From Candidatus Bathyarchaeota archaeon (GTDB lineage Archaea; Thermoproteota; Bathyarchaeia; Bathyarchaeales; Bathycorpusculaceae): a DNA stretch of 64,000 nt. The notes under the pieces were generated by a model, which was not told where the DNA came from, did not search any database, and saw only the letters and a list, made by a program, of their open reading frames with translations. Below, piece after piece: positions 1,895 to 62,852 of the stretch. Made by a program: the position numbers and the translations under genes. The DNA is taken from positions 18,831 to 82,830 of the forward strand of contig JAOUPS010000001.1 of the NCBI GenBank assembly GCA_029879735.1. The letters are read 5' to 3'. Position 1 is the stretch's first letter. Each line of letters opens with the position of its first letter.

Positions 1895-1907
1895 GCGCGC
1901 GCGCTAG
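1895..1907. repeat. (GC)5-TAG motif locus
   Basis: gaaaGCGCGCGCGCTAGtagg, in the 35-nt gap between the permease and ATPase genes of the ABC operon. Confidence 0.9.
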
Positions 1908-1922
1908 TAGGTGATCTGACCA

Positions 1923-2888
1923 TTGAGCATGAGCGTAAAAACGTTGCTTATTAACAAAACAAAGACATATTATTTCACGAGATTCGGCACCGTAAGAGCG
2001 GTAGATGGTCTGAGCATGGAATTAGGTGAAAAAGAGGCAGTCGGGCTGATAGGTGAGTCTGGATGTGGGAAAACCACCTTGGCCTTATCAATAATAAGAT
2101 TGCTCCCGCCTCAATGCAAGATTTTAGAAGGAAGCATTCTATTTAAGGGAAGGAACTTGTTGGAACTTACAGAAAAAGAGATTAACCGCGTGAGGGGAAG
2201 AGAAATATCGATGATCTTTCAGAATCCTTCAAGTTATTTGAACCCGGTCATGAAGATTAGTGAGCAAATTATCGAATGCATTACCAACCATCATGCTATG
2301 AAGAAATCAGAAGCGGAGGAAAAAGCGCTTGAAATGTTAACGAAACTTCGCATTCCTGAGGCAAAACAGGTCATGCGGTGCTATCCATTTGAGCTTAGTG
2401 GGGGAATGCAACAACGTGTTGTGATTGCAATAGCACTCATACGTAATCCTGTACTACTCATAGCAGACGAACCAACAACATCTGTGGATGCCACCATAGA
2501 GAGACAGATCTTAAACTTATTGAATGAGCTAAAAGAGAACCTCTCACTATTATTGGTTACTCATAATCTAGGCGTCGTGGCTGAACTATGCGAGAAGATT
2601 TACTGCATGTATGCTGGAAAAATCGTGGAATATGGTGACATTTTTAAAATCTTTGAAAATCCGATGCACCCATATACATCAGGGCTATTGAAGTCGGCTC
2701 TCAGTATTGATGAATTGAAGAAGAAAATTATGGTTGTCAAAGGCGATGTACCCAGTTTAATTAACCCACCCCCGGGTTGTAGGTTTCACACTAGATGTGA
2801 ACACGTTAGACCAATTTGCAGTAAACAAGAACCGCCAACAGTCAAGGTTGGAAAAAATCATTGGGCATCGTGTTGGCTCCATTACTAG
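1923..2888 (+). CDS. ABC transporter ATP-binding protein (DppD/OppD-like)
   Basis: Walker A GESGCGKT, signature LSGGMQQR, Walker B LLIADEPTT, and a C-terminal oligopeptide-transporter extension with a Cys cluster (GCRFHTRC). Confidence 0.9.
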   Translation: MSMSVKTLLINKTKTYYFTRFGTVRAVDGLSMELGEKEAVGLIGESGCGKTTLALSIIRLLPPQCKILEGSILFKGRNLLELTEKEINRVRGREISMIFQNPSSYLNPVMKISEQIIECITNHHAMKKSEAEEKALEMLTKLRIPEAKQVMRCYPFELSGGMQQRVVIAIALIRNPVLLIADEPTTSVDATIERQILNLLNELKENLSLLLVTHNLGVVAELCEKIYCMYAGKIVEYGDIFKIFENPMHPYTSGLLKSALSIDELKKKIMVVKGDVPSLINPPPGCRFHTRCEHVRPICSKQEPPTVKVGKNHWASCWLHY

Positions 2889-2927
2889 GGGTGTATATCA
2901 ATATCAATACTTGTTAAAGCTGAAGGC

Positions 2928-3875
2928 TTGAAGAAATATTTTCCGTTGAGACAAATGCCATTCAGAAAAAAGTTATTCGTACATGCAGTTGATGGAGTTG
3001 ATCTCACAATCGAAAAAGGCGAGATATTAAGCTCAGTAGGTGAGAGCGGATGTGGGAAAACGACCCTTGGAAGATTAATTTTAGGGATATTAAAACCGAC
3101 TGCTGGAACAGTGAAGTTCATGGATCAAGATATCTACAAGTTGCACGAAAAGAATAAACGACGTGAAATTCGACGTCAAATGCAGGTGATATTTCAAAAT
3201 CCCTTCCAATCGCTTAATCCCCGGAAAACCATAAAGCAAATTCTAGCTAAGCCGTACAAGGTTCACAAGGTGATTATGAAAAATGAGATTACATATAAAG
3301 TGTTAGAGCTATTGGAACAAGTCAACCTCAAACCGGCGGAAACTTTCATCGGGAGGTATCCCCACGAGCTTAGCGGAGGACAAAAACAAAGAGTCGCTAT
3401 TGCCAGAGCCCTAGCCCTTAACCCTAAATTTGTCGTTTGCGACGAACCTGTATCGTCGTTAGACCTTTCAATTCAAGCCCAAATACTTAATCTAATAGCC
3501 GAATTGAGGGAGAAAACTAAAGTTAGTTTACTATTCATTACACATAATCTGGCTGTAGTTAGATCAATATCAGATAGGGTTGCAGTAATGTACCTAGGTA
3601 AGTTCGTAGAATTAGCTGACGGAGAAGAACTTTTTCAGACTCCTCTACACCCATACACTCAGGCCTTGCTCTCAGCAATTCCTATTCCAGATCCCAAAAG
3701 AACACGCCTCCGGAAAAGAATCGCCCTAAAGGGCGATGTTCCGTCTCACCTCAATCTTCCGTCAGGCTGTCGATTCCACACCAGGTGTCCATATAGTAGA
3801 AGCGAATGCTGTTCTGTAGAACCGAATCTCAACGAAGTTAGAAGAGGCCACTCTGTAGCCTGTCACATTGCATGA
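2928..3875 (+). CDS. ABC transporter ATP-binding protein (DppF/OppF-like)
   Basis: Walker A GESGCGKT, signature LSGGQKQR, Walker B FVVCDEPVS, and a C-terminal GCRFHTRCP motif. Confidence 0.9.
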   Translation: MKKYFPLRQMPFRKKLFVHAVDGVDLTIEKGEILSSVGESGCGKTTLGRLILGILKPTAGTVKFMDQDIYKLHEKNKRREIRRQMQVIFQNPFQSLNPRKTIKQILAKPYKVHKVIMKNEITYKVLELLEQVNLKPAETFIGRYPHELSGGQKQRVAIARALALNPKFVVCDEPVSSLDLSIQAQILNLIAELREKTKVSLLFITHNLAVVRSISDRVAVMYLGKFVELADGEELFQTPLHPYTQALLSAIPIPDPKRTRLRKRIALKGDVPSHLNLPSGCRFHTRCPYSRSECCSVEPNLNEVRRGHSVACHIA

Positions 3876-4042
3876 TAGAAGCGTTCCACAAAGCCTACAA
3901 ATACGAGGCTTGGATGTTCCCAAGCCATCCACAATTCGTGAACTATTGGAACTATGAAAGGCCACATCAAGGAATAAGTTATCTATACCCGGCGGATGTA
4001 TACTTTAGAGACCTAAAGAAAGGGACACATCATAGTGGATAG
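3875..4042 (+). pseudogene. C-terminal remnant of an rve-type (DDE integrase-core) transposase/integrase
   Basis: A 55-codon open frame with no start directly after the ABC operon stop. It reads IEAFHKAYKYEAWMFPSHPQFVNYWNYERPHQGISYLYPADVYF. The YN..RPH..L/I tail is typical of the C-terminus of rve-domain transposases. Confidence 0.4.
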
Positions 4043-4075
4043 AACAGATAGAACAGGTTTAACCAAAGGCCCTAC

Positions 4076-6238: not shown

Positions 6239-6973
6239 TCATAACATTCTGAGGAGGCTACCATAGCCTTTTGTGGGTTCTGAAACTTTCGCCTTCCTTA
6301 ATGCATCCCATAGCGTTGCTATGTTGCTAGTAATCACAGGTTTTCCCAAGTCTCGTTCCAATTTTTCAATAATGGGTGCCGCATGGAGGCCTGTGCAACT
6401 TTGGAAAATGCCTTCAGCTCCGGGTACATCAACACTCCGAATAAGTTTGTAATTCTCATGCGGGTTGTTGTCTTGAAATTCGTAAACATCTTTGTATTCT
6501 CCTTTACGCCGTTGCATGTTCACTACTTCAAAGCCGATTTTTTCTAGATAATCCTTCAGCACGTCATTTATTTTCTTAATGTAAGGTGTAATAACGGCAA
6601 CTTTCTTTATTTCCAATTCTTTGAGAGCTGCTACAGCCGCTGTAATTATTGTTGAAGCGGGGATATCTGGTGCAGCGTTGTTTATCTTCTTTATTAATCC
6701 CTCAGTCCATTCCGTTCCGCCTATGAAGCTACCACTCGTGCACCCAAACGTTATACTCGTAGGTTTAAGGGGAAGCAGAAGTTTTGTCGCTTCTTCGACT
6801 TTGTCAGCCATTGCCCATAAGTGTTTATCAGTTTGAGATGTGTTTCCAGGCAAGGTATGGAAGCGCGCCGAAAATATTGCCACACCCTCTGGAGCCATTC
6901 TCCAGAGCTCAGGTTCTAACGTAGAGTCGCCATCTGGAATAATTAATCCTATTCTTGCCCTCCAACCGTACAC
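6239..6973 (-). CDS. Asp/Glu/hydantoin racemase superfamily protein, maleate cis-trans isomerase-like
   Basis: N-terminal GWRARIGLIIP motif. Both conserved Cys boxes are present (ITFGCTSGSF and IFQSCTGLHA). Confidence 0.75.
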   Translation of the reverse strand: MYGWRARIGLIIPDGDSTLEPELWRMAPEGVAIFSARFHTLPGNTSQTDKHLWAMADKVEEATKLLLPLKPTSITFGCTSGSFIGGTEWTEGLIKKINNAAPDIPASTIITAAVAALKELEIKKVAVITPYIKKINDVLKDYLEKIGFEVVNMQRRKGEYKDVYEFQDNNPHENYKLIRSVDVPGAEGIFQSCTGLHAAPIIEKLERDLGKPVITSNIATLWDALRKAKVSEPTKGYGSLLRML

Positions 6974-6985
6974 TTCAGGACCAAC

Positions 6986-8718: not shown

Positions 8719-9942
8719 CGCGCGCTAGCCTGTTTAGAAATTGTTGTTGATTTTGTGGTTGCTGTCTTTTCTTGGGTTTCTCTGCTTGTTTTTTCTGTGT
8801 TTGATTGCTGTTTCTATCTGGAATACATTGTTCCGAGCTGGCTTCTACCTTTTCCTAGGCGTTTCTTTGATGGCTAACCCTGTATTAACCCGTCTTTGAT
8901 GGGTCTTGTTTTGCCTCATTGGGTGGTGTAGTGTTTGATGCTGCGGATGAGGCTTGGCTTATGCTGTCGGACAGCTGTTAAAGCCACGACCAGCATGGCT
9001 GAGAAGCTCAGACAAGCATGGATAAAAGCCTGTTTTAAGCCTCTAACTCTCAAGTGGTCTAGGAGAAGCCATTCTTTGGCTCTGCTGAACACCCTTTCTA
9101 TGCATACTCGCTTCCGGAAGAGGTTGGCCAGACGCTTAACTCCGTGAACCACGAAGTCACGTCCAACTTTCAGGGCGTTCTTGATCCTTGAACTTTTCCT
9201 GTAAGGTATTACCGCTTCAGCACAATACTGCTTAACCGTTTCCCTAACCTTTGCCGAGTCGTATTGAGCGTCAGCCAGAACAGTTTTGAAGCTTATGCCT
9301 CGACACTTCAGCTTCTGCAGCAACGGCTTAAAGCACAGCTTCTCGTTCACGTTACAGGGCTCAACAGTGAATGCTAGTGGCAGTTCAGAGCTTGTGCAGC
9401 ATGCCGTGTGCACCTTATAGCCGAGTATGAATCCTCTTCTTCCCCTTCCAACGCGAGCGTCGTGGTCGCTTTTCCCTGATCTGTTGTCTAGGCTTCTCTG
9501 GCTGTAAGCTTTGATGGCTGTGCTATCCAAAGCAACCACTTCACTTTTTACCGCTCCGTCCTTCAACAGCTGTTTCAATAGTATAGAGAACACCTTCTCG
9601 TACCCATCCCTGCCAAGCCTATGCCTAAACTGGGTGAACAAGCCGTGACTAGGCGTCTCCCGTCTGAATCCACATGCTCTAGCAATCCGCCTGTTCCTCT
9701 TCAGCAGCAACGCAAGCCGCCGATCGCTTGGAACACGCCACAGCTGTTTCAGCAACTGAGCCTTCAACATAGAAACAGGAGGATAAGGCTTCCTGCCAGG
9801 CCCGTCTCCATGATAAAGAGACATCAAAAACCTGCGAATAGAACCTAAATTCAGTGAACCAAGCACTTGCTTAATGTTCAAAGCTTCTTCCTAACATAAG
9901 CTTACCTAAACAACAAATTAATTTCTAAACAGCCTAGCGCGC
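8719..9942 (-). mobile_element. IS5-family insertion sequence, copy 1
   Basis: A single DDE transposase ORF with terminal inverted repeats: cctgtttagaaatt at 8729-8742 and aatttctaaacagc at 9920-9933. The ends are flanked by cgcgcgCTAG (8719-8728) and CTAGcgcgc (9934-9942). CTAG is read as a 4-bp target duplication; alternatively the inverted repeat extends to 23 bp and includes GCGCGCTAG. Confidence 0.85.
8916..9881 (-). CDS. IS5-family DDE transposase
   Basis: InsH-type N-terminus (GRKPYPPVSMLKAQLLKQLWRVPSDRRL). DDE candidates are ALDSTAIKAY, LADAQYDS and CIERVFSRAKEW. Confidence 0.9.
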   Translation of the reverse strand: MNIKQVLGSLNLGSIRRFLMSLYHGDGPGRKPYPPVSMLKAQLLKQLWRVPSDRRLALLLKRNRRIARACGFRRETPSHGLFTQFRHRLGRDGYEKVFSILLKQLLKDGAVKSEVVALDSTAIKAYSQRSLDNRSGKSDHDARVGRGRRGFILGYKVHTACCTSSELPLAFTVEPCNVNEKLCFKPLLQKLKCRGISFKTVLADAQYDSAKVRETVKQYCAEAVIPYRKSSRIKNALKVGRDFVVHGVKRLANLFRKRVCIERVFSRAKEWLLLDHLRVRGLKQAFIHACLSFSAMLVVALTAVRQHKPSLIRSIKHYTTQ

Positions 9943-10062
9943 AATGCAGTCAATCCCAACACTATGATTTAATTAGCAAGTTTTTTTCTTCATCGTAATA
10001 TTCCTTTTTTGCGTTTGGAAAAGAAAGATAAAGATATACCAGAATACAATACTTTGGATATT

Positions 10063-10803
10063 TTATACACCCCTTTCAAGAAGCTTTCCGTATCCACTTA
10101 TTGGCTTTCTATACTTGGCACTTCTTAGTATGCTCCAAAAAGTAGCTGTGTTGGATGATATAACTGGTTTGCCAAGCTCGTCCTCTAGAGACTGCAATAT
10201 TTCCATCGTACGAAAGTTGGTGCAAGAAATCAGTATACCTTCTGCTTCAGGCGTATTCGCCTTTTTAGCAAGATCATAAGCGACTTTTGGAGGCAGCACA
10301 CCCTCTTCGTAGGCGTCCCACATGTTCGAATTCAAATTTTTACATACTGAAAATCCATATCCCTCAAGAAATGTTTTGAGTCTCTCATCTATTCCGTCTA
10401 CATAGGGAGTAGCAGTAGATACCTTAGTTACGCCTAGTTCTCTCAGGGCTTCGACGACAGCAGTGGCTGAGGTTATGGCTGGAATGCCCGCCTCTTTCTC
10501 TATATTCTGTGCTATGACCTTGTCGTGGCCGACACCCTTGTAAAAACTCACTGTTGTATCGGCAAAAACTATGATGTCCACTTTAGAAGCTGCAAGTAGT
10601 TTTGCTTCGTAAACCGCTGATCTCTCCATCAACTCTGCCCCCTTAAGCACAGCGTTAAAGTCTCTTGCTTCTTCGTCTTCTCTCTTTTTGGATTCCATCC
10701 TAGTTGTATGGATAGCAAAGTCATCAAATGGTAGAATTCTAATTATTTCTCGTTCAACCACAGTATTACGGTATGGACATAACAAACCTACCTTATAAAC
10801 CAA
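10063..10803 (-). CDS. Asp/Glu racemase superfamily paralog lacking the first catalytic Cys (arylmalonate-decarboxylase-like configuration)
   Basis: It aligns by eye to the 6239 and 12636 paralogs. The first Cys box reads IVFADTTVSF (GC replaced by AD) and the second box ILISCTNFRT is retained. Confidence 0.7.
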   Translation of the reverse strand: MVYKVGLLCPYRNTVVEREIIRILPFDDFAIHTTRMESKKREDEEARDFNAVLKGAELMERSAVYEAKLLAASKVDIIVFADTTVSFYKGVGHDKVIAQNIEKEAGIPAITSATAVVEALRELGVTKVSTATPYVDGIDERLKTFLEGYGFSVCKNLNSNMWDAYEEGVLPPKVAYDLAKKANTPEAEGILISCTNFRTMEILQSLEDELGKPVISSNTATFWSILRSAKYRKPISGYGKLLERGV

Positions 10804-11479: not shown

Positions 11480-12487
11480 ATGACGCTTCTCATAAGAGAA
11501 AAGGATGTGATGAGAGTTTTTTCGCCTAAGGATATGATCGAGGCTGTGGAAGACGGCTTTCGGCAACATGGACTTGGTCTGGCTCAGACTCGACCTCGAC
11601 GCGAGGTTCGTATACGAGGGAAAGAGCTACGACATGCTGATCCTCGGATAGTTAGGGTTGCGCAGGGTTTGGCTTTTTTAGAAGAGTCAGGGGTTGTAGT
11701 GATTGACCACATCTTTAGTTTTCCGGACCGCGGAACTCCGCCAATGAGGGTTGTAAAGCATCTCATCGACGCAGATGAGGGGGGTGTCATTGCCGTTATT
11801 GACTCATTAAATCTTCTGGGAATACGTACAGCAGCAGCCAGCGCCGTCGGCGCAAAATTTCTTTCAAAAAAAGATAGTAAAGTTGCGAGTATAATCGGAA
11901 CGGGGCGCCAAGGTAGGATTCAACTCAGGTTCCTATTGCAGGTTAGGCCTATCGAGAAAGCCTATGCTTACGACGTACGTGCATACGCGCGAGATAAATT
12001 CTGCGAAGAAATGAGCACAGAACTCGGAATTGATGTGCTATCATCAGAGAAAATTGAACACGTTGTCAGAAACGCTGACATCTTGGTTACTGCAACTCCT
12101 GCAATAAGTCCCATCGTCAAGGCGGAATGGCTCCTGCCAGGCGTGCATGTCAACATTATCGGTGCAGATGCCCCTCCTAAAATTGAACTTGAGGGAGCTG
12201 CCCTAAAGAGAGCGGACAAACTGGTGATCGCTGCAGAAGATTGTTTCACGGCAGGGCAAATGCGAATACCAATAGAGGAAGGCCTCATTGGCGAGAATGA
12301 CATCTATGGGACTATTGGAGAGATCGTCGCAGGAATCAAGGCAGGAAGAGAAAGGAAGAATGAGATTACGGTCTTTCATTCTCCCGGGTTGACCCTGCAA
12401 GACGCCGCAGCAGCGTATAGGGTCTACATCAGAGCGAAAGAACTTGGTCTTGGTGTTGATGTCCCGGATCCGTTTTTGTTAAGCTAG
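11480..12487 (+). CDS. ornithine cyclodeaminase/mu-crystallin family protein (archaeal alanine dehydrogenase-like)
   Basis: Rossmann motif IIGTGRQG. The overall pattern MRVVKHLID...LLGIRTAAASAV is typical of the OCD_Mu_crystallin family. Confidence 0.85.
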   Translation: MTLLIREKDVMRVFSPKDMIEAVEDGFRQHGLGLAQTRPRREVRIRGKELRHADPRIVRVAQGLAFLEESGVVVIDHIFSFPDRGTPPMRVVKHLIDADEGGVIAVIDSLNLLGIRTAAASAVGAKFLSKKDSKVASIIGTGRQGRIQLRFLLQVRPIEKAYAYDVRAYARDKFCEEMSTELGIDVLSSEKIEHVVRNADILVTATPAISPIVKAEWLLPGVHVNIIGADAPPKIELEGAALKRADKLVIAAEDCFTAGQMRIPIEEGLIGENDIYGTIGEIVAGIKAGRERKNEITVFHSPGLTLQDAAAAYRVYIRAKELGLGVDVPDPFLLS

Positions 12488-17251: not shown

Positions 17252-17263
17252 AAAGCGCGCTTT
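17252..17263. repeat. AAAGCGCGCTTT palindrome
   Basis: Perfect 12-bp palindrome between the divergent aspartate racemase and zinc-ribbon genes. Confidence 0.9.
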
Positions 17264-21933: not shown

Positions 21934-21978
21934 TCATGGGCTGGTTTGGCTTCTGGCATTCGGCAGTCAGGTGACAAG

Positions 21979-49653: not shown

Positions 49654-50553
49654 GTGTTTGCTCGTGAAAAACAAGCACAAAACAAAAATCATATGGTTAC
49701 TATAAAACTGCCTATGACCCCTCAAATTGAGATAACATTGCTTGGAACGGGCGGTGGGAGATTTGCAACAATCACTCAGAAGAGGCGTACTGCTGGAATC
49801 CACATAATCAGCGAAGATTTAAACTTTCATTTAGACCCTGGCCCTGGGGCACTGGTTTACTTGATTAGTGAAGGCTTAAACCCTCAGAAGCTTGACGCTG
49901 TTTTCGTTTCCCACTGTCACCCGGACCATTACACAGACGCTGAAGTTCTAATAGAAGCCATGACTAAAGGCACAACCAAGAAACGCGGAGTTTTAGTCGC
50001 TTCGAGGAGCGTCTTGCATGGTAATGAGATGAGATTTGGCGCTGCGGTTTCTAAGTATCATCAGCAAATGCCCGAACGCGTAATTGAGGCTTTACCAGAC
50101 ACGAATTTTCAAGTTGGCAACATCAACGTTTTGGTGACTGAAGCAAGACACACGGACCCTGACACTGTGGGCTTCAGATTTGAAACCTCAGAATTTGGAA
50201 GTTTTGCCTATACAAGCGATACAGAATATTTTGAAGGTGTAAGCAAATACTATGGAGGCGTAAGGCTTCTCATATTATGCGTGATGAGGCCATCTGGAAA
50301 ACCATGGAAAGGACACATGACAACAAACGACGCGATAAAAATCATCGAGCGAGCACACCCAGAACAAGCCGTTTTGACACATTTTGGAATGCAAATGATA
50401 TTTAAAGGACCAGCAAAAGAGGCAGGACTGATTGAAGAAGAAACAGGTGTTCCAACAATTGCCGCTAGGGATGGAATACGAATAAAATTCGGAGAAACGA
50501 TAAGCGTGCAAACCAGCAGGAAAGCCCAGCAAGGCTTGAACAGATTCTTCTAA
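49654..50553 (+). CDS. MBL-fold metallo-hydrolase
   Basis: SHCHPDH motif and TLLGTGGG N-terminus. The true start is probably the internal Met (MVTIKLPM). Confidence 0.8.
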   Translation: MFAREKQAQNKNHMVTIKLPMTPQIEITLLGTGGGRFATITQKRRTAGIHIISEDLNFHLDPGPGALVYLISEGLNPQKLDAVFVSHCHPDHYTDAEVLIEAMTKGTTKKRGVLVASRSVLHGNEMRFGAAVSKYHQQMPERVIEALPDTNFQVGNINVLVTEARHTDPDTVGFRFETSEFGSFAYTSDTEYFEGVSKYYGGVRLLILCVMRPSGKPWKGHMTTNDAIKIIERAHPEQAVLTHFGMQMIFKGPAKEAGLIEEETGVPTIAARDGIRIKFGETISVQTSRKAQQGLNRFF

Positions 50554-50603: not shown

Positions 50604-51278
50604 ATGCGGCTTGTGTTGCGAATAGGCGGCTCTGTTATAGCTTCACCGGTTAATCCAGCCTTAATCAATAGGTACGCAGACTTATTGAAGGATTTGAAGG
50701 AGCAGGGACACGAAGTGGCTGTTGTTGTCGGAGGTGGCGCCCTAGCAAGAGAGTTCATCAGTGTTTCAAAGGATTTAGGACTTGACGAAAGAGCTCAGGA
50801 TGAAGTTGCAATTTCTGTTTCAAGGATTTTCGCTCAGCTTTTTCTCCAGAAACTCGGAGAGCTAGGCTGCAGGGCTGTTCCATTAAGGATTGAGGATGCT
50901 GTAAAATGTCTACGTGAAGGAAAAATCACAGTTATGGGCGGCTTAAAACCCGGCATGACCACAGACACGGTCGCGGCGTTGATTGTTGAACAAGTAAATG
51001 CTGAATTGCTCATAAAAGCCACAGATCAAGAAGGCATCTACGACAAAGACCCTAGAAAACACGTTGACGCCGTTAAACTTGAACATCTAAGTTTTGACGA
51101 TCTATCCCGTGTGTTCGCTGAAGACAAGCACAAGGCTGGAATACATCAGATCCTTGATCCGGAAGCAGTTAAGATTCTTAAAGAAGAACGGGTTAGAATC
51201 ATCGTTGTTAACGGGTTTAAGCCTGAGAATGTTTTGGCTGTTGCTAAGGGAGAAAAAGTTGGGACGTTAATCATGTAG
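50604..51278 (+). CDS. pyrH: UMP kinase, archaeal type
   Basis: VLRIGGSVIASP, VVVGGGALAREF and GMTTDTVAALIVE motifs. Confidence 0.9.
   Translation: MRLVLRIGGSVIASPVNPALINRYADLLKDLKEQGHEVAVVVGGGALAREFISVSKDLGLDERAQDEVAISVSRIFAQLFLQKLGELGCRAVPLRIEDAVKCLREGKITVMGGLKPGMTTDTVAALIVEQVNAELLIKATDQEGIYDKDPRKHVDAVKLEHLSFDDLSRVFAEDKHKAGIHQILDPEAVKILKEERVRIIVVNGFKPENVLAVAKGEKVGTLIM
51263..51277. repeat. direct repeat copy 1 (GACGTTAATCATGTA), last codons of pyrH
   Basis: Exact 15-mer repeated at 53583-53597. The similarity extends to about 24 nt with 3 mismatches. Confidence 0.85.
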
Positions 51279-51288
51279 CGTGTGCTGT

Positions 51289-51298
51289 GCGCGCGCTA
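51289..51298. repeat. (GC)4-TA motif locus
   Basis: gtGCGCGCGCTAac, 11 nt after the pyrH stop. Confidence 0.9.
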
Positions 51299-51307
51299 AC
51301 TTTTGCA

Positions 51308-51406
51308 TTGAAGCCGGAGGAGAAGGCAGATCTTGAAGCTATCGTTAGAAGGCTGGAACCAAAAATCGAGCCAGCAGTTGGGAAGGTTAAGGAGAGAAAA
51401 AATTGA
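51308..51406 (+). CDS. mini-ORF (32 aa), possible gene fragment
   Basis: TTG-KPEEKADLEAIVRRLEPKIEPAVGKVKERKN. It begins 10 nt after the GCGCGCGCTA tract and overlaps the next mini-ORF by 4 nt. Confidence 0.2.
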   Translation: MKPEEKADLEAIVRRLEPKIEPAVGKVKERKN

Positions 51407-51543
51407 GCAAGAAAGAGAAGATCGAGTTTGAAGAAGTTACACTTAAAATTCCTAAGCTCGTCATGGATTTTCTACGCAAACACGAGAAACGCCTGGAAGA
51501 AGGAACCGCGCGCGCGTGGCCGAGTAAGTTTAAACGTGTTTAA
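51403..51543 (+). CDS. mini-ORF (46 aa), possible 5-prime fragment of a larger gene
   Basis: TTG-SKKEKIEFEEVTLKIPKLVMDFLRKHEKRLEEGT, then the coding-like sequence runs into the (CG)5 tract at 51507-51516. Confidence 0.2.
   Translation: MSKKEKIEFEEVTLKIPKLVMDFLRKHEKRLEEGTARAWPSKFKRV
51507..51516. repeat. (CG)5 motif locus
   Basis: aacCGCGCGCGCGtgg, interrupting a coding-like mini-ORF. Confidence 0.9.
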
Positions 51544-51615
51544 ACAACGTGGTTTTTCTACCATGTAGCGCGGGCACATAGGTATGAAATAATTCCTTTT
51601 TTTATGTATCCATAT

Positions 51616-52080
51616 TTACCCAAAACTTATTGTGAAAGTTTGTTTTGGTCCATCAAATAACACAGAACAATGTTTTAGAGCGTCCATTCCTAAGAGTTCC
51701 CTTTTCCTGTTCCCGCACATAACCAATATTGCAGTTTTCCCTGGAGGTGGAAAGGTATATGTATCAATCTTATGTATGTATGCGGCACAGACATAAGCAG
51801 GGATTTTGCTGCCATCAGCCAGAGTTATGTTTGTAATACTGGGTTCAACGCCTATGGTTTGTGCATCTGATCTGTACCAATGCGGAACCAAAATCCCGCC
51901 ATCAAAGCCGGTGTCAATCCTACATTCAAAGTCCAAAGGAGTTCGGCGCATATTTTGTGGGTTTTGAATAGCACCTACTATTCTTACATTTGCTGATTTA
52001 TTCTTGTACCTTTTATTTATCGTAATTGTTCTTTCTGTCAAGTTCTCCAACCTGAAAAAGATTCTGAACCAGCTTCCCAA
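51616..52080 (-). CDS. retropepsin-like clan AA aspartic protease (AF_0612-like), second copy of the family
   Basis: CRIDTGFDGGILVP catalytic DTG motif in 154 aa. The TTG start overlaps the upstream ORF by 43 nt. Confidence 0.65.
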   Translation of the reverse strand: MGSWFRIFFRLENLTERTITINKRYKNKSANVRIVGAIQNPQNMRRTPLDFECRIDTGFDGGILVPHWYRSDAQTIGVEPSITNITLADGSKIPAYVCAAYIHKIDTYTFPPPGKTAILVMCGNRKRELLGMDALKHCSVLFDGPKQTFTISFG

Positions 52081-52562
52081 ACAATAACAGGCATATCAAA
52101 TCTTTTTCCTTGGATTCTTAGCAACAGATCAATTTCGGTATCCGCAGAGTCAACAATACGCCCATCAAACTTCATAGCAATGAATGCCCTTGGCTTTACC
52201 TGATAAAAATCAATAGATATCTTTGCTATCTGTTCGATCAGTTCAACCATCTCTTCTCTTTTCAGTTGCGTTCTCCTCATACTAGCAAGTTTCTGAAGCA
52301 ATCTTGGTGGTAACCATGGTTTAGGTGGCCTATTGAAACCAAGACGTATTCTTTGTTCAAATGAAAATGGAATGTCTTCCCTAGTGGGTTCAGTTTTTGA
52401 AATGTCCTCTTTACTAAGGTCAAATTTTGGTTTAGGTATCGTTCCAGATTGTGATCCAGGAGTTGAAGAGGGGTAAGATATAGTTTCTTCTTCCTCTTTG
52501 AATATCGTTTGTTGATAACTTTCAGATACTTCGGGAATAACTGTAAGTGCCACAAGGTTCAC
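52038..52562 (-). CDS. hypothetical protein with a low-complexity N-terminus and a DUF5678-like C-terminal segment
   Basis: The C-terminus AFIAMKFDGRIVDSADTEIDLLLRIQGK..PVIVWEAG resembles at pattern level the partner of the other aspartic protease (39886..40167). Its start overlaps the stop of the upstream ORF by 4 nt. Confidence 0.5.
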   Translation of the reverse strand: MNLVALTVIPEVSESYQQTIFKEEEETISYPSSTPGSQSGTIPKPKFDLSKEDISKTEPTREDIPFSFEQRIRLGFNRPPKPWLPPRLLQKLASMRRTQLKREEMVELIEQIAKISIDFYQVKPRAFIAMKFDGRIVDSADTEIDLLLRIQGKRFDMPVIVWEAGSESFSGWRT

Positions 52563-53206
52563 CTATCAATAAGACCAATAACCTTTGCCATCCTTTCCTC
52601 GAAAGATTCTACAAATTTCCTTGTTTTAACTCTATCGCTGTTTCTGAAAACAACACTTATAACATACGAATCATTCCTCTCAAAGTTCGGTCTGACCGTT
52701 ATATCAAACCAATTTTCTGAATTTACTCTTAAATCAGCGCCGCCAAATCTAAGTCCAAAAGGCCAAATTTTCTCGTCCATTATCTTTTCAAGGTCATCGA
52801 AGATTGAAAATCTAAGGGCTTTTGCAATCGTTTTGTAAGCTTGCTTTTTTGTTGGAAATTCATATGTCGCAACAAAACTATAAAATCGTGCAATGTCATT
52901 AACATCAACATCATGATCTTCTTTTAAGATATTAGCAATTTCATCGAAACAGGTTAGGGCAGATTTGATAGAAATATCTACGATTGTCAAAAACTGTGCG
53001 CTCGTATCAACCTGTATGACGGTTTTTCCTTTGCGAGCTATTTCGCCTGTACCCGTCATCCTTCCCGGGGGGCGTGGAAATGGAAGCGCAGGGCTGATTT
53101 CGTAACCTTTTTTTTCTAAACTCTCAACTATTTCTTCAAAAGTCAGCGGATACAGAATCGTATTGAAGCCTATGCCATAAGTGACTGACAGAGGTTTATA
53201 TCTCAT
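52559..53206 (-). CDS. hypothetical protein (215 aa), first gene of the three-gene operon
   Basis: A strong SD-like agaggggg sequence lies 5 nt upstream of the ATG, with A/T-rich TATA-like boxes further upstream. No recognisable family motif. Confidence 0.55.
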   Translation of the reverse strand: MRYKPLSVTYGIGFNTILYPLTFEEIVESLEKKGYEISPALPFPRPPGRMTGTGEIARKGKTVIQVDTSAQFLTIVDISIKSALTCFDEIANILKEDHDVDVNDIARFYSFVATYEFPTKKQAYKTIAKALRFSIFDDLEKIMDEKIWPFGLRFGGADLRVNSENWFDITVRPNFERNDSYVISVVFRNSDRVKTRKFVESFEERMAKVIGLIDR

Positions 53207-53244
53207 TTTTCCCCCTCTTCATTTATATATACTCTTTCGATTGC

Positions 53245-53257
53245 TTATATTTTAATA
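53245..53257 (-). promoter_or_regulatory. candidate TATA box for the 53206..51616 operon
   Basis: The minus strand reads ttaaaatataagc about 40-50 nt upstream of the ATG at 53206. Confidence 0.3.
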
Positions 53258-53310
53258 TGGCGTGTGGTAAGTACCGACCACCACCGCTAAATTGTTCTTT
53301 GAGGGCCTTC

Positions 53311-53319
53311 CGCGCGCGC
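53311..53319. repeat. (CG)4C motif locus
   Basis: ttcCGCGCGCGCtcta, upstream of the three-gene operon. Confidence 0.9.
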
Positions 53320-53582
53320 TCTATCGATGGCGTCATCTAATCTTACAATTCCCCTTCTTTTTTCTGTTTTCTTGTAATATCAAGCCACATAGAACTATCT
53401 TCTATAATAGAAATCCATATTTTATGGTTAAATCTGGTGATTTATGATATTGTAACGTATTACCGGACTGTCGCGCACGCACACAAAGGAGCCGAAGACA
53501 TCTGGATTCTTTCTATGGGGTTCATGGAAGTTTAAAAGCGAACCACGTATGGGCTATAGGTGATTAATGTCACGTAGGCATA

Positions 53583-53597
53583 GACGTTAATCATGTA
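53583..53597. repeat. direct repeat copy 2 (GACGTTAATCATGTA)
   Basis: Exact copy of 51263-51277, located just upstream of the PadR promoter. Confidence 0.85.
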
Positions 53598-53629
53598 ATG
53601 TGTTCTCGTTCAACACTTTCGAGGCAACG

Positions 53630-53663
53630 TTTATATATCATAGTTGATATCAAATGCGATATC
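53630..53663 (+). promoter_or_regulatory. candidate PadR promoter (TATA tttatata) plus tandem GATATC operator-like repeats
   Basis: tttatata lies at 53630-53637. GATATC lies at 53646-53651 and 53658-53663, spanning the expected transcription start. The ATG is at 53676. Confidence 0.4.
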
Positions 53664-53675
53664 ACTGGTGATAAC

Positions 53676-56225: not shown

Positions 56226-56825
56226 CTACCGTTTTTCCTGTTTTTCTTTCCAAAAGGAGATGAACCATGGTGCGCTTAGAACTAAGCCTATTGGAATTAC
56301 GATTTCTGCTGTCATGAGCATTTTCCTGCTTGGCGCAACTAGGTTGATCATTGATATCTGGCTTCTGTACGTAACCGTCGCGTTGCCATAATTAGCGAAG
56401 ACTAGTACTGCTTGTTCAACCATTGTTGGTATGTATTCAAATTCAACTTCTCCTGTAATGTTTCTGAGGTAAGAGATTATGTCAGAGTGGTTTCCGAAGA
56501 AAGCTTCCAGCATACTTGTTTTCCACATTCGAGAATAGTCTCCTGCTGGAGTGTTGTTGTAAAGCCAGTTTGATATATAGCTATAATTTGATTGTACCAA
56601 GTAAATCGTTAACTCGTCGCTGGAATTCACTGCCACACGTATGCCTCGTTGTGGATTAAGCATAAATGAAGGCCCAGAAAAGAAAAAACGTGAAGGCTGA
56701 AGCGTTGAACCGTATGCGGAATAAGTTTGTTCTCGTGCGGGTATAAGTGAGATGAGCAGTAGGGCTAAGCCCACAGACATTAAAACTGTTCCAATTCTTC
56801 CAACCAGCACGGTCCATCGGCTCAT
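56226..56825 (-). CDS. hypothetical membrane-anchored protein (N- and C-terminal TM helices)
   Basis: Last gene of the ABC-2 operon, overlapping the permease gene by 4 nt. No family motif recognised. Confidence 0.5.
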   Translation of the reverse strand: MSRWTVLVGRIGTVLMSVGLALLLISLIPAREQTYSAYGSTLQPSRFFFSGPSFMLNPQRGIRVAVNSSDELTIYLVQSNYSYISNWLYNNTPAGDYSRMWKTSMLEAFFGNHSDIISYLRNITGEVEFEYIPTMVEQAVLVFANYGNATVTYRSQISMINLVAPSRKMLMTAEIVIPIGLVLSAPWFISFWKEKQEKR

Positions 56826-57625
56826 AGGCTAAGCCTCCTGCAGAAGTATACATAACTAATCGAGAACATGACTGCCACCAGTGCAAACGCACCTCCCACA
56901 TACCATAACACTTCATTGAAGCTCGGAGTCCAAGAACCAGCTAAACCAGTTGAAAAATAATGTTGCTGAAGCGCGAGAGCTGGATTAATTACAGCGATTA
57001 TTTGAATAGGCCAAGCTGAACCAGTGACAAATGCGATTACGGTTAGTATTCCGTTGACAACTCCTATAGCGAAGTATAGGATTATTCCGAAAACTAATGC
57101 TAAACCGCCTCTTTTAACTTTCAGAGTCATCAGTAGTAAGACTGCTGCTAAGAAGAGTGAATAACCGATGTTTGCCGAATAAGTTAGAAGCACTGTGCCA
57201 ATGTAATTGGAGATTATGTCTGGTGCAAGTAGGTAGAGTGCTGAGATTTGTATTCCAAGAAATATCAAGAGAGCTACAACTATTGCTGAAAGAAGCTTAG
57301 CTGTAAGTATAGAACGCCTTTTAAGCGGATAAGAGAAGAATGTTTGGATCGTTCCTTTTTCCAGATCATTTCCAAGTCCATAAGCTATATTTTTGAAAAT
57401 CAAAATTATAAAGATAAATATCGGAAATCCCATTAACGACGTTACCATCGTATAAGCTACTTGCTCATTCGTGACACCTCCATACGTCTGAAAACTCACG
57501 AATATGAATGTTCCCAACGTGTATAGAAATGTGAAGAGTTCGAGGATTGGAAAACGGTAATCTTCTTGTAATGTTGAAGCAAAAATTTCTAGGAATGGTT
57601 TACCCTTATGCTCAGTTTTCTCCAT
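56822..57625 (-). CDS. ABC-2-type transporter permease
   Basis: Six predicted hydrophobic spans, immediately downstream of the ATPase gene. Confidence 0.7.
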   Translation of the reverse strand: MEKTEHKGKPFLEIFASTLQEDYRFPILELFTFLYTLGTFIFVSFQTYGGVTNEQVAYTMVTSLMGFPIFIFIILIFKNIAYGLGNDLEKGTIQTFFSYPLKRRSILTAKLLSAIVVALLIFLGIQISALYLLAPDIISNYIGTVLLTYSANIGYSLFLAAVLLLMTLKVKRGGLALVFGIILYFAIGVVNGILTVIAFVTGSAWPIQIIAVINPALALQQHYFSTGLAGSWTPSFNEVLWYVGGAFALVAVMFSISYVYFCRRLSL

Positions 57626-57628
57626 GGT

Positions 57629-58555
57629 TTACACCTTCTTGTTTTCGTTTGTAACAACAAGTCTGTACAGTTCCTCTAGTGATGCGCTTCCAGTTTCTAT
57701 TCCAAGAATCTTAGTTTTAGCTTTTTTAGCAAGTTTGGCAGCATCCTCATAGAGATTTTCTTCCTCACCTTTCGCAGTGCGAACAGAGATTCCGCGTGCA
57801 TCAGTTTTAATGTTTTCAATGTAAGAGAGTTTTTCAAGTTCAGCAGCCAACTTTTCAGGTTTTTCCACATTGATTCTTATTATTTCCGTAGCGTATTTTT
57901 CATAGAGTTCTGAAAGCTTTCCGGCAGCGTAAACCTTGCCCCGATTAATTATCGCAACAGAATCGCACACTCTGCTTAGTTCAGGAAGAATATGGGATGA
58001 AAGAAGAAACGTGGTTTTCTCTTTTTTGTTTATATTCACCACCAAGTCCAGCAGCAAGCTTCTTCCTTCCGGGTCAAGATTTGCAGTCATTTCGTCCGCC
58101 ACAATTAGCTTGGGCTCATGAATTATCGCGTGAGCAATAGCAAATCTCTGAAGCATACCAGCGGATAAGGCTTTGATCTGCCTATCATAAGCATCTTCTA
58201 AGCCGACTAGACCTAAAACTTCATGTGCTCTTGCTTCGGGTATGCCGAAAATTCTGCAAACTCTTCTAATATAATCCAGCACCTTCTGATAAGATGGAAA
58301 ATAAGCTTTTTCATGGACGACACCTACTAATTCTCTTAAATAAGGGTTGTCCCATGGTTCTTGACCGAAAACCTCAACGTGACCCCTGTCAGGTTTCAGT
58401 AAACCCAAAACAATTTTAATGGTGGTTGTTTTTCCTGCACCGTTGGGGCCAATTAAACCAGTGATGGCGCCCTCTTCGACATTGAGGTATAAACCGTCAA
58501 CCGCAACCACCCTACCGTATTTCTTCACCAAGTCCTCGGCAACGATCAAGCTCAT
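57629..58555 (-). CDS. ABC transporter ATP-binding protein (ABC-2/DrrA-like)
   Basis: Walker A GPNGAGKTT, signature LSAGMLQR, Walker B IVADEMTANLD. Confidence 0.9.
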   Translation of the reverse strand: MSLIVAEDLVKKYGRVVAVDGLYLNVEEGAITGLIGPNGAGKTTTIKIVLGLLKPDRGHVEVFGQEPWDNPYLRELVGVVHEKAYFPSYQKVLDYIRRVCRIFGIPEARAHEVLGLVGLEDAYDRQIKALSAGMLQRFAIAHAIIHEPKLIVADEMTANLDPEGRSLLLDLVVNINKKEKTTFLLSSHILPELSRVCDSVAIINRGKVYAAGKLSELYEKYATEIIRINVEKPEKLAAELEKLSYIENIKTDARGISVRTAKGEEENLYEDAAKLAKKAKTKILGIETGSASLEELYRLVVTNENKKV

Positions 58556-58698
58556 TATCTCTCAACCAATCTTCTTGCTTACTATAAAAGCGATATAAAA
58601 AAGCTTCTGAAAACAAAATCCGCTAAAATGCTCCCTCGCATGTGCCTGAACAAATTTAAACAAAACCTGTACATATCATATCAAAAGGTGCAACGCTG

Positions 58699-61760: not shown

Positions 61761-62159
61761 TTGACAGAAAAAGAGGCAAAACCACCGATACGCGTGAAGA
61801 TGAAGATAGGAGAAATAGAGTTCGAAATAGAGTGCCAAGAAGAACAACTCCAAGCAACAGTTGACAAAATTCTCTCGACAGTAACTGAAAGACTGAAGGG
61901 GACATCATTCTTAACTGAAAGAGCCGCGCCACCACCAAGAGCAGAAACATGTAAAGGCTTAATCCAAAAACTTTGGGAAGAGAGATGGTTCGCAACATCT
62001 AGAAACCTAGGCGAAGTACACAGTGAAATGGCAAGGCGAGGTTTTCACTACGACCGTACAGCAGTAGCCCACGCACTAATCGACCTAGTCAAAGACGGAA
62101 TACTAACAAGAGAAGGAAAACCGAGAAGGTATCAATACGCCCAGAAAAGGCCGCCGTAA
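61761..62159 (+). CDS. winged-helix DNA-binding protein with small N-terminal domain
   Basis: The C-terminal wHTH pattern is NLGEVHSEMARRGFHYDRTAVAHALIDLVKDGILTREGKPRRYQY. It is divergent from the NurA/HerA pair. Confidence 0.5.
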   Translation: MTEKEAKPPIRVKMKIGEIEFEIECQEEQLQATVDKILSTVTERLKGTSFLTERAAPPPRAETCKGLIQKLWEERWFATSRNLGEVHSEMARRGFHYDRTAVAHALIDLVKDGILTREGKPRRYQYAQKRPP

Positions 62160-62200
62160 CCCGTTGAGTTTTAACGTTTTTTCTTCAGACTTTCAGAATT

Positions 62201-62211
62201 CTAGCGCGCGC
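62201..62211. repeat. CTAG-(CG)3GC motif locus
   Basis: ttCTAGCGCGCGCcgac, between the convergent wHTH and flavodoxin-like genes. Confidence 0.9.
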
Positions 62212-62216
62212 CGACT

Positions 62217-62759
62217 TTATCCCTTAACTAACCGTCTGCCCGCCTTTTCCAACATCTCAAGCTTATGGTCTTTCGAGAATCGAGTTACTGGAACCAGGTC
62301 GAAGATGTTGAATCCGAGCCTTCTGAGATAGTCTTCGAGATTGTAGAGGGCACGGACTACACCTCGGCCGCTTCCACCAGCCGAGGCTATTCCGATGGCC
62401 TTCTTACCCATAAAAGTCTTAAAATCTCTACCAGTTTCACATCGGCGGAGACGGTCTAGAAAGACCTTAGCGGACTCGCTGAGGTCATGCCAGTATACCG
62501 GGGTAGCGAAGATTAGAGCATCTGATTTGGCAATCTTTTTCGTCAAATTCTGGAAATCGTCTTCGAGGATGCATGCTCCTTTCTTCCTGCATTCTCCCCA
62601 TCCGTCTTCACAAGCGATACATGGCTTTATGTCTAGCCTGTTTAGGTGAACGAGCTCAGTTTCCCCACCTTCAGCCTCAACACCTTTAAGGACAGCTTGA
62701 GCAAGACTAGAAGTCAACCCATCTAAATTGGGACTTGACTGAATAGCAATAGCCTTCAT
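62217..62759 (-). CDS. flavodoxin-fold NAD(P)H-dependent FMN reductase/iron-sulfur flavoprotein-like
   Basis: MKAIAIQSSPNLDGLTS N-terminus, a Cys cluster CIACEDGWGECRKKGAC, and the ATPVYW motif. Confidence 0.75.
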   Translation of the reverse strand: MKAIAIQSSPNLDGLTSSLAQAVLKGVEAEGGETELVHLNRLDIKPCIACEDGWGECRKKGACILEDDFQNLTKKIAKSDALIFATPVYWHDLSESAKVFLDRLRRCETGRDFKTFMGKKAIGIASAGGSGRGVVRALYNLEDYLRRLGFNIFDLVPVTRFSKDHKLEMLEKAGRRLVKG

Positions 62760-62842
62760 ACTAGCGACCGGAAGCTAAGAGATGAAAGGCAATAAAAAAC
62801 GTTGCGCCATTTAAAGAACTACTTAATTATGGTAGCATAAAT

Positions 62843-62852
62843 CGCGCGCTAA
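62843..62852. repeat. (CG)3C-TAA motif locus
   Basis: atCGCGCGCTAAaag, upstream of the flavodoxin-like gene, in inverted orientation to the 62201 locus. Confidence 0.9.

Follow-up and report, generated by a model that had tools for sequence, protein, structure and literature searches.

Why does a stretch of archaeal DNA with a G+C content of 42.5% carry so many short runs of alternating C and G, and why do most of them lie between genes? The stretch, hereafter the window, comprises the 64,000 nucleotides at positions 18,831 to 82,830 of contig JAOUPS010000001.1 (GCA_029879735.1) from Candidatus Bathyarchaeota archaeon. A preliminary description had claimed 20 such loci, nine of them with 8–10 nt, had guessed the G+C content at 40-45%, which the computed value bears out, and had reported a bias to DNA between genes. 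When the whole window is scanned for maximal runs of alternating C/G with a minimum length of 6 nt, exactly 20 loci and the same nine long runs result, and the positions agree save for that given as 9936, which is really 9937–9942.

The runs are far too frequent for the composition of the window. GCGCGCGC matches 11 times, overlaps included, whereas 100 dinucleotide-preserving shuffles of the window give 0.19 ± 0.49, and GCGCGC has 29 against 5.7 ± 2.7 in such shuffles, so the enrichment survived the correction for composition; Markov models of orders 0–3 give ~6 GCGCGC, 4–6 CGCGCG and 0.2–0.4 matches per 8-mer for the window. None of the other dinucleotide repeats tested in the window is enriched. 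With coding and non-coding DNA separated by a gene table made from public gene calls, 16 of the 20 loci are found in non-coding DNA, which accounts for 13.6% of the window (binomial p = 4e-11), and so are eight of the nine long runs; the reported bias is thus confirmed. Coding DNA of the window holds (CG)n at chance level (GCGCGC, 4 observed and ~4 expected; CGCGCG, 3 and ~3), and non-coding DNA holds 25 GCGCGC and 18 CGCGCG against ~0.5 expected for each at order 1. An assembly artefact is ruled out, the sequence being identical in independent JGI, ENA and Logan assemblies.

The key lead is a fact that the preliminary description overlooked: four of the 20 loci are the outermost hexamers of the terminal inverted repeats of two 1.22 kb copies of an IS5/IS1182-like insertion sequence (IS).

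8720–9942, minus strand: IS copy 1, 1223 bp, inverted repeat I6 (23 nt, 96% complementary); the loci 8719–8725 and 9937–9942 are its outermost bases
8916–9881, minus strand: transposase of IS copy 1, 320 aa as the longest ORF and 302 aa as called
44813–46029, minus strand: IS copy 2, 1217 bp, inverted repeat I1 (34 nt, 88% complementary), direct repeats D1 and D2; the loci 44813–44818 and 46024–46029 are its outermost bases
45006–45953, minus strand: transposase of IS copy 2, 315 aa, with Pfam (DDE_Tnp_1, DUF772) and NCBIfam matches

The terminal inverted repeat of copy 1 is GCGCGCTAG(C/G)CTGTTTAGAAATT, and its homologous copies all terminate at the same hexamer; copy 2 shares 78–84% identity with it. 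The transposase of copy 1 matches Pfam DDE_Tnp_1 (1e-24) and DUF772 (2e-15) and the NCBIfam models IS1182 (171 bits) and IS5_4 (99 bits), both below their cut-offs. It has 912 homologues at E<=1e-10, of which those named belong to Bathyarchaeota, and the 1.22 kb element is very abundant in Bathyarchaeia metagenomes.

The boundary of the element is nearly invariant. Over the window and ten MAG contigs, 20 of 22 IS ends are exactly GCGCGC and the other two are off by one base; a near-identical multi-copy relative adds nine further distinct junctions, all of them GCGCGC, and at the ~30 independent IS ends on other contigs the boundary is always GCGCGC-TAG. Read inward, each end consists of GCGCGC, TAG and the conserved repeat (G/C)(G/C)TGTTTAGAAATT, with the hexamer on both sides. 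The run at IS ends is 6 nt long in nearly all cases, which would fit a hexamer that the element carries along or generates. The half-site CGCGCTA(G/A), earlier put at about two thirds of the loci, is present at 10 of the 20, four of which are IS ends. The IS ends examined show no direct repeat beyond the terminal hexamer, and no unoccupied GCGCGCTAGCGCGC was found in the 0.8 Mb searched; any target duplication must therefore lie inside the (CG) run. Since GCGCGC is self-complementary, the two hexamers of one copy form an inverted and a direct repeat at once.

The remaining loci of the window, among them the solo runs, are as follows.

1895–1904: solo GCGCGCGCGC followed by TAGTAGG, 8 nt past an oppC-like stop and 25 nt before the next start, in an opp operon that lacks a close relative (identity to the next best OppD homologue, 57%)
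6863–6868: GCGCGC, codons Ala36-Arg37 of an Amdase/racemase gene, a chance coding occurrence; the paralogue alignment has no insertion here and the Arg is conserved
11986–11991: CGCGCG within an ornithine cyclodeaminase-like gene, a chance coding occurrence
17255–17260: solo AAAGCGCGCTTT, in front of the minus-strand gene 16468–17211 and 44 nt from its start
21979–21988: solo GCGCGCGCGC in the divergent gap 21636–22022, which also holds a 127-nt ParB-like family fragment (21792–21918; repeat D3)
25795–25800: solo CGCGCG, 25 nt past the stop of the minus-strand gene 25826–26347
32716–32724: CGCGCGCGC in the final codons of an aromatic-lyase gene (stop 32699–32701); homology with L034 ends 1 nt from the run
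36872–36877: GCGCGC, 5 nt past the AcnX-swivel stop
41206–41211: GCGCGC, encoding Ala-Arg as the final two codons ahead of the TAG stop in a ParB-like 243-aa gene; the L031 orthologue reads GCGCAC
42332–42341: solo TA-GCGCGCGCGC-TA in a divergent gap, adjoining AIM24, which is inverted relative to L024, L026, L055 and L071
46141–46148: solo CGCGCGCG, 111 nt to the right of IS copy 2 and 46 nt upstream of the gene at 46194
51279–53597: strain-specific insertion of 2.3 kb, absent from all relatives; on either side of it the 3' end of pyrH recurs as an imperfect direct repeat of 24 nt (51263–51286 and 53582–53605)
51289–51296: solo GCGCGCGC-TAA, 11 nt past the pyrH stop, where the left direct repeat of this insertion has its inner edge; absent downstream of pyrH in all 77 relatives examined
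51507–51516: solo CGCGCGCGCG within the insertion; a small ORF missing from the gene calls may end close to it
53311–53319: solo CGCGCGCGC within the insertion, upstream of the gene 52559–53206
62204–62211: solo CTA-GCGCGCGC, 5 nt past the FMN-reductase stop, in a strain-specific segment that starts at 62160
62843–62849: solo CGCGCGC-TAA on the opposite side of the FMN-reductase gene, in a divergent gap

Apart from the final codons of genes, solo runs occur only in non-coding DNA. On the minus strand, the run at 36872 caps a second repeated IR-like end, GCGCGC-TGGCTTGTCCCGAAATT, whose flank forms a cluster of the window locus, L004 and L086; the orthologous sites read GCCCGC in L031 and GTGCGC in L086. 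A further IR-like end that abuts (CG)n, ...AACAGCATAAGA-GCGCGCGC, occurs in L003 and has its run in common with an IS end.

At orthologous sites among 80 related loci the solo runs are not conserved, and 6-mers there decay through point mutation; the finding thus also survived the comparison with relatives, which could have shown the loci to be ordinary conserved regulatory sequence. Per 10 kb, the window together with its closest relatives has 1.4 long solo runs, IS-selected contigs of other MAGs have 0.66 and more distant loci 0.10 (p = 0.002-0.005 for the contrast). The solo runs are lineage-specific, and only the closest relatives and IS-bearing contigs carry them densely. TA flanks are enriched at long runs, as on the inner side of IS ends (13/59 vs 10/132, p = 0.006). 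Run length ranges from 6 to 13 nt over the loci, and one orthologous site has GCGCGC in L027 and GCGCGCGCGC, 4 nt longer, in L030. Long runs are found exactly where the 3' end of an aminotransferase gene is cut (L031, 304), at the end of a 175-bp gene fragment (L026, 4570), at the fusion point of two truncated genes (L030, 3453) and at an exact junction (L028, 2299), and L003 has a 29-nt IS-end fragment between two runs. These are truncation, mosaic and insertion junctions, as is the edge of the 2.3 kb insertion marked by 51289 in the window. Because they coincide with the invariant outer bases of the IS and sit at gene-truncation and insertion junctions, the runs look like traces of mobile DNA and not regulatory sites.

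We tentatively favour, with not quite even confidence, the reading that the runs are the terminal or duplicated palindrome of an IS5/IS1182-like family together with the scars of elements come and gone. The hexamers may be the inverted-repeat tip of an element that makes no target duplication, as reported for IS1272, or they may hide a palindromic duplication of 2, 4 or 6 bp, for example GCGC, much as IS5 has the 4-bp CTAG. What remains at sites where an IS inserted and was then lost would be the solo runs, the loss occurring possibly through slippage or rejoining of the two terminal hexamers, in or out of register, to give 6, 8, 10 or 12 nt. Breaks at (CG)n sites may lead to one-sided deletions, which would explain the truncated genes that abut runs, and selection would purge insertions inside genes, so that runs would build up between genes and at 3' ends. 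A recombination site is the best fit among the options offered by the preliminary description, the overall interpretation of which is borne out only in part.

Several observations count against the IS reading. Most solo flanks are unique and bear no vestige of the IS inverted repeat. Simple in-register slippage should yield 6-mers above all, yet runs of 8–10 nt dominate non-coding DNA. Six runs are in the CG phase vs 13 in the GC phase (p = 0.08). No copy of this IS is found within 10 kb of the runs in L026, L027, L030 and L031, the internally deleted IS of L011 has a deletion junction without (CG)n, and the co-occurrence of (CG)n and IS across contigs is confounded by phylogeny. No occupied/empty site pair was found, and insertion into, or loss leaving, (CG)n is not directly seen.

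Known systems offer partial parallels. IS5 of E. coli has a DDE transposase, terminal inverted repeats and a 4-bp palindromic target duplication, mostly CTAG (PMC5493358). The element described here shares with the IS5 family a DDE_Tnp_1 and DUF772 transposase of ~320 aa, a length of ~1.2 kb and terminal inverted repeats; it has the 4-bp palindrome CTAG at both ends, beside the conserved repeat, and a concealed GCGC duplication, likewise a 4-bp palindrome, would be in keeping with the family. In contrast to IS5, its ends have the invariant GCGCGC, the NCBIfam IS5 models score below cut-offs on its transposase and the closest annotated transposases are at most 33% identical; its CTAG is not a simple target duplication, given the lack of an unoccupied site. 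IS1272 of Staphylococcus aureus, from the IS1182 family, transposes in an “inverted-repeat-replacing” manner: the palindromes that it enters lie in the 3' ends of genes or a few tens of bp past them, and the target is not duplicated (PMC5678879). IS1182 is the best NCBIfam match of the transposase, and the run positions and the absence of a visible duplication match IS1272. However, the 171 bits are under the 270-bit family cut-off, the protein of ~320 aa contrasts with a 488-position model, and the targets of IS1272 are diverse stem-loops with a loop, unlike a single fixed loop-less (CG)n. We know of no described scars of IS1272 loss.

REP/BIME sequences are intergenic palindromes in bacteria and the specific targets of particular IS (PMC1525189). 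Like them, the runs are short palindromes limited to intergenic DNA and associated with an IS; REPs, however, are imperfect palindromes of 20–40 nt with a loop, conserved within species in hundreds of copies, whereas the runs are 6–13 nt of pure (CG)n, unconserved between relatives and located at rearrangement junctions. Cut-and-paste DNA transposons such as Tc1/mariner and PIF/Harbinger, the latter eukaryotic relatives of IS5, leave excision footprints composed of duplicated target and terminal nucleotides (cf. PMC2836001). The runs would resemble these in being short sequences at former element sites that are tolerated chiefly outside coding DNA, but they come without an observed donor site before or after excision, and to our knowledge such footprints are not established for prokaryotic IS. 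No archaeal element resembling solo (CG)n runs was found in the searchable literature; the earlier remark that none is described is fair for solo runs, but the phenomenon is tied to a known kind of element.

It is unlikely, if credible, that the tracts are independent host palindromes, easily extruded or broken, which the IS targets and duplicates and does not produce. IS ends always lie in a (CG) context, no duplication shows up outside it, and solo flanks are unlike the IS; REP-targeting IS (PMC1525189) and palindrome-targeting IS1272 (PMC5678879) provide precedents. In L003 a single run serves two different elements, as repeated hits on one target would give, and some IS or solo flanks extend the palindrome (AGAT...ATCT in L008, AAAGCGCGCTTT, TAGCGCGCGCGCTA). 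The origin of the runs is nevertheless left unexplained, 16 being observed against a chance of <1 per 8.7 kb of non-coding DNA. They are unconserved and arise de novo where genes are truncated and within the remnant of an IS, and nearly half of the solo runs of the lineage are at least 8 nt, whereas IS-flanking runs are almost always 6 nt.

Somewhat more doubtful is a DNA-repair signature, in which broken ends would be joined via short self-complementary tandem repeats, (CG)n in the present case and (CATG)n in a relative, synthesised or expanded at the break and carried or collected by the IS only as a secondary matter. The runs lie exactly at deletion, fusion and mosaic junctions where the intact homologue has no (CG) seed, and their length varies. 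The gene upstream of pyrH was truncated three times independently, with a palindromic repeat at each junction; in L086 a 16-nt GCATGCATGCATGCAG filler lies between two truncated genes, and with a second (CATG)3 it represents the only such repeats in 790 kb. This (CATG)n at an equivalent junction makes a broader palindromic junction-filling process possible, and the IS model accommodates it only by assuming another element. Yet (CATG)n occurs in one lineage only, filler is absent from the L011 deletion and from the window-specific indel 56226–58640, and no enzyme has been identified; sloppy repair would not give the uniform hexamer of ~30 IS ends in many genomes.

It is very improbable that GCGCGC is a restriction-modification or methylation site, its distribution shaped by defence systems. 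The word is a 6-bp palindrome of that type, an Mrr-like nuclease gene adjoins the locus 21979, and ten related loci (146 kb), chosen post hoc, have zero GCGCGC against 11–39 expected, which suggests that other lineages avoid the word. A restriction site, however, is as a rule under-represented, and here coding DNA is at expectation and non-coding DNA ~40-fold enriched; the runs of 8–13 nt, the junction positions and the IS ends would be left unexplained. That the runs are sites of a dimeric regulator, or promoter or terminator elements, is the faintest prospect of all, for although they are palindromic and intergenic, with TATA-like boxes beside 42332 and 46141 and stops just before 1895, 36872, 51289 and 62204, their placement relative to TATA boxes, starts and stops is inconsistent (as the preliminary description had seen in calling them neither simple promoter nor simple terminator), several lie within strain-specific junk or gene fragments, the 6-mers decay freely, and none is conserved orthologously in the 80 related loci, in contrast to a genuine upstream motif, that of the PadR gene, which is retained there.

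We also note that the “degenerate versions” of the motif reported earlier are mostly unremarkable; those at 21793 and 35349, for example, are homologous 3' ends of ParB-like gene fragments, the intact copy of which ends at 41206.

Scanned for alternating C/G runs of 6 nt or more, each taken at its maximal length, the window yields precisely the 20 loci of the preliminary description, including the same nine of 8–10 nt (runs of at least 8 nt are referred to as long). The window corresponds to positions 7940-71939 of JGI contig Ga0224506_10000134, and its sequence, runs included, recurs in the MAG at NCBI and in ENA and Logan assemblies made independently, which shows that the runs are not an assembly accident. 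Compared with dinucleotide-preserving shuffles of the window, GCGCGCGC is present 11 times where 0.19 occurrences are expected, and GCGCGC 29 times where 5.7 are expected; similar expectations come from Markov models of orders up to 3. A gene table built from public gene calls bears out the proposed intergenic bias, since the non-coding DNA, 13.6% of the window, contains 16 of the 20 loci (p = 4e-11) as well as 8 of the 9 long runs. GCGCGC and CGCGCG occur at chance number in its coding DNA and are ~40-fold enriched in its non-coding DNA. The half-site CGCGCTA(G/A), thought to extend about two thirds of the loci, is found at 10 of 20. The (CG)n finding is real and statistically strong.

In the window, many runs are found no more than 25 nt from a stop codon or in the final codons of a gene. 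The two runs deep inside genes are ordinary codons, and footprints inside genes are unsupported, as the run at 6863 represents no insertion relative to paralogues. General microsatellite slippage was rejected, because CG/GC are the sole dinucleotide repeats enriched. Gene cassettes bounded by pairs of runs are unsupported, with no clustering in the window; clustering overall is weak (6 of 15 neighbour distances below 1.3 kb, p = 0.03). The GC phase is weakly favoured over the CG phase (13 vs 6, p = 0.08), and TA is enriched in the flanks of long runs (22% vs 8%, p = 0.006). Rfam and tRNA scans of the window gave no matches, and a search of the literature found nothing on GCGCGC between archaeal genes. 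Z-DNA-prone tracts are (CG)n stretches that flip to the Z form under physiological supercoiling; runs of 8–13 nt, being alternating purine-pyrimidine (CG)n, are candidates for this on sequence grounds.

Four of the 20 loci are the ends of the two copies of a 1.22 kb IS5/IS1182-like insertion sequence (the IS), which are 78–84% identical to each other:

8720-9942, minus strand, IS copy 1, 1.22 kb
44813-46029, minus strand, IS copy 2, 1.22 kb

The terminal inverted repeats start GCGCGCTAG(G/C)CTGTTTAGAAATT, are 23–34 nt long and 88–96% complementary, and are kept in all copies. Each copy encodes a transposase of ~320 aa with DDE_Tnp_1 (Pfam PF01609; E 1e-24 and 5e-21) and DUF772 domains, for which metagenomes hold more than 900 close homologues, from Bathyarchaeota wherever a source is named; its identity to annotated transposases reaches 33% at most. 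Across ten other MAG contigs, 20 of 22 IS ends read exactly GCGCGC and the other two are one base off, and nine more junctions, of a multi-copy relative, are likewise bounded by GCGCGC. A second small family of ends reads GCGCGC-TGGCTTGTCCCGAAATT. One of the IS-bearing contigs (CAVVAJ010000005.1), labelled uncultured Chloroflexia, is clearly archaeal: it encodes an archaeosine tRNA transglycosylase, an aCPSF1-like nuclease, an archaeal GlmM and Hef, so that its label looks wrong. The complete genome CP070759.1 carries an internally deleted, MITE-like IS copy of ~460 bp (9937-10396 of locus L011), with no run at its deletion junction. About 100 nt to the left of IS copy 2, at 44675-44720, lies an inverted repeat of 7 bp, AACGCGC ... 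GCGCGTT, its arms 23 nt apart, which includes two loci earlier called degenerate.

Our tentative preference is to read the runs as the palindrome, terminal or duplicated, of this IS5/IS1182-like family, together with scars and break-prone sites that its insertion, loss and accompanying deletions have left behind; purifying selection would then restrict them to non-coding DNA and gene ends. CTAG is found at both IS ends, just inside the invariant GCGCGC, and no direct repeat was seen outside the terminal hexamer at the ends in the window, in the MAG contigs or at the nine further junctions. In 0.8 Mb neither GCGCGCTAGCGCGC nor any core of this sequence occurs unoccupied; CTAG therefore cannot be a simple duplication, and CTAG or TA as target duplication with GCGCG as target context was rejected. 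Since GCGCGC is its own reverse complement, it may form the inverted-repeat tip or hide a duplication of 2, 4 or 6 bp, and a tip is indistinguishable by sequence alone from a duplicated GC, GCGC or GCGCGC.

Excision footprints are recognized where one site is occupied in one genome and scarred in another. No pair of occupied and empty IS sites was recovered from same-strain contigs, relatives or gene-neighbour look-ups. Exact-protein look-ups with the genes beside both IS copies returned the same strain only, where the IS is present or the contig breaks; orthologues of the OCD gene stand in non-syntenic contexts and gave no empty site, and the opp operon around the run at 1895 has no relative above 57% identity.

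NCBIfam places the transposase between IS1182 and IS5. The IS1182 model matches best (171 and 154 bits, in three stretches, below the cut-off of 270), IS5_4 gives 99 and 92 bits (below the cut-off of 140), and other IS5 models score lower. The IS resembles the IS5 family in its DDE_Tnp_1-type DDE transposase and terminal inverted repeats and differs from it in failing the curated IS5 models; it departs from the IS1182 family in falling below the cut-off of the curated model. The IS5 group makes a short target duplication, 4 bp YTAR. CTAG is the favoured duplicated target of IS5 (PMC5493358); IS1272, of the IS1182 family, makes no duplication and uses a palindromic target near gene 3' ends (PMC5678879). 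The lack of a visible duplication at the IS ends and the run positions near gene 3' ends would fit an IS1272-like element, whose pre-insertion target was not recovered here. A palindromic target also bears on the possibility that the runs are independent palindromes of the host that the IS targets; we consider this unlikely, and the sites of solo runs, i.e., those not at an IS end, lack conservation in relatives.

Lengths of non-IS runs are 6 nt (51 runs), 7 (15), 8 (12), 9 (9), 10 (7), 11 (1) and 13 (1). The flanks of solo runs are mostly unique, and 3 of 214 come within 5 mismatches of the IS repeat (1.5% expected). Solo runs as degraded IS ends were rejected, their flanks being not IR-like beyond chance, as was a MITE reading, the flanks resembling the IS repeat no more than random DNA does. 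In contrast to REP palindromes, which are imperfect, looped, 20–40 nt long and, within a species, conserved and multi-copy, the runs are loop-less, 6–13 nt long and set in unique flanks.

Long runs sit at junctions, as is seen when the window is compared with related Bathyarchaeia loci (L-numbers). An aminotransferase gene is cut 46 nt short of its end precisely at GCGCGCGCG in L031, where a second such run closes a 324-bp replacement segment, and a 175-bp aminotransferase gene fragment terminates exactly at (CG)5 in L026. The MBL-fold gene upstream of pyrH (49654-50553 in the window) has been truncated independently at L030 3453, L028 2299 and L086 5476, each time with a palindromic repeat at the junction. 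The L028 truncation lies at (CG)4.5, and in L030 the gene is joined to a truncated small ORF via (CG)5; the corresponding site in L027 is GCGCGC, and this pair (6 nt vs 10 nt) is the sole candidate for a footprint, and an indirect one. A pseudo-IR at the L030 junction is only apparent and within chance. A mosaic gap of 340 bp in L003 contains three runs, which separate a 158-bp piece, possibly an internally deleted IS, and a 29-nt IS-end fragment; one run is common to two different IS-like ends.

Within the window, the run at 51289 lies at the inner edge of the left copy of a direct repeat, imperfect and 24 nt long, of the pyrH 3' end, which bounds a strain-specific 2.3 kb insertion:

51263-51286, left 24-nt repeat
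53582-53605, right 24-nt repeat

So long a duplication does not resemble the target duplication of an IS. None of the three genes inside the insertion has a family match, though one is weakly aspartic-protease-like. An FMN-reductase gene that is strain-specific has a run on either side, at 62204 and 62843, and in L026 runs bracket a homologue of a ParB-like gene that has two truncated paralogous fragments in the window:

41203-41934, ParB-like gene, 243 aa
35372-35722, truncated paralogous fragment
21792-21918, truncated paralogous fragment

Gene order around the AIM24 gene (42399-43058) is very fluid: the gene is inverted relative to L024, L026, L055 and L071, and a strain-specific radical-SAM gene, IS copy 2 and a 197-aa gene lie between it and the LSM gene.

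A different repeat occupies such a position in L086, where GCATGCATGCATGCAG joins two truncated genes, AcnX and MBL-fold:

L086 5460-5477, (CATG)n filler, 18 nt
L086 975-986, (CATG)3, 12 nt

No further (CATG)n of at least 11 nt occurs in 790 kb of related sequence. Either another element has a CATG terminus or target, or the junctions were repair-filled by self-complementary repeats. Extended to the (CG)n runs, the latter would make them a signature of palindromic-filler repair, which the L086 and MBL-fold junctions would suit and which we regard as improbable; the uniform GCGCGC at the IS ends speaks against it. An equally improbable combination is that some Bathyarchaeia may seal chromosomal breaks and rearrangement junctions with such short repeats, (CG)n in the lineage of the window and (CATG)n in that of L086, the IS having acquired or exploiting the filler as its terminal hexamer. 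Repair-derived runs would be the first genomic signature, not described before, of end joining with palindromic filler in archaea.

Although abundant, Bathyarchaeia are uncultured, and we know of no experimental work on their mobile DNA and break repair. Should the runs be scars or targets of the IS, they would be a simple sequence marker of past insertion or rearrangement sites, and would account for the very poor gene-order conservation between relatives with 80–90% identical genes. In that case they would further attest to a DDE element with a fixed, loop-less GC palindrome as its ends or duplicated target, which bears on target choice by IS5/IS1182-type transposases.

Long runs are lineage-specific: their number per 10 kb is 1.4 for the window together with its closest relatives, 0.66 for contigs of other MAGs that bear the IS, and 0.10 for more distant loci. 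The 6-mers decay where an alignment crosses them: 36872 is GCGCGC in the window, GCCCGC in L031 and GTGCGC in L086, and 41206 reads GCGCAC in L031. GCGCGC/CGCGCG is absent from ten loci (L034, L035, L038, L042, L058, L067, L068, L070, L075 and L077; 146 kb, 11–39 expected, chosen post hoc), which looks like lineage-specific avoidance, possibly due to a restriction system. The earlier suggestion that GCGCGC is a restriction/modification-type site is very improbable for the window, where the palindrome is at expectation in coding DNA and enriched in non-coding DNA rather than under-represented genome-wide; avoidance is confined to those other lineages.

A regulatory role, which placement between genes might suggest, is scarcely credible; solo runs are not conserved functional sites. 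Among 80 loci around the pyrH orthologue in related Bathyarchaeia (69–86% protein identity, 0.6 Mb in total), the run after pyrH is absent in 77 of 77 relatives, and a different, clearly conserved motif stands before the next gene in all but a few of these. The motif TTTAAATATCAC-N4-GATATC-N6-GATATCAATGGTGATA, present at 53630-53672 in the window and, among L023-L101, in over 50 loci downstream of pyrH, precedes PadR-ABC transporter genes and is probably their promoter with a PadR operator.
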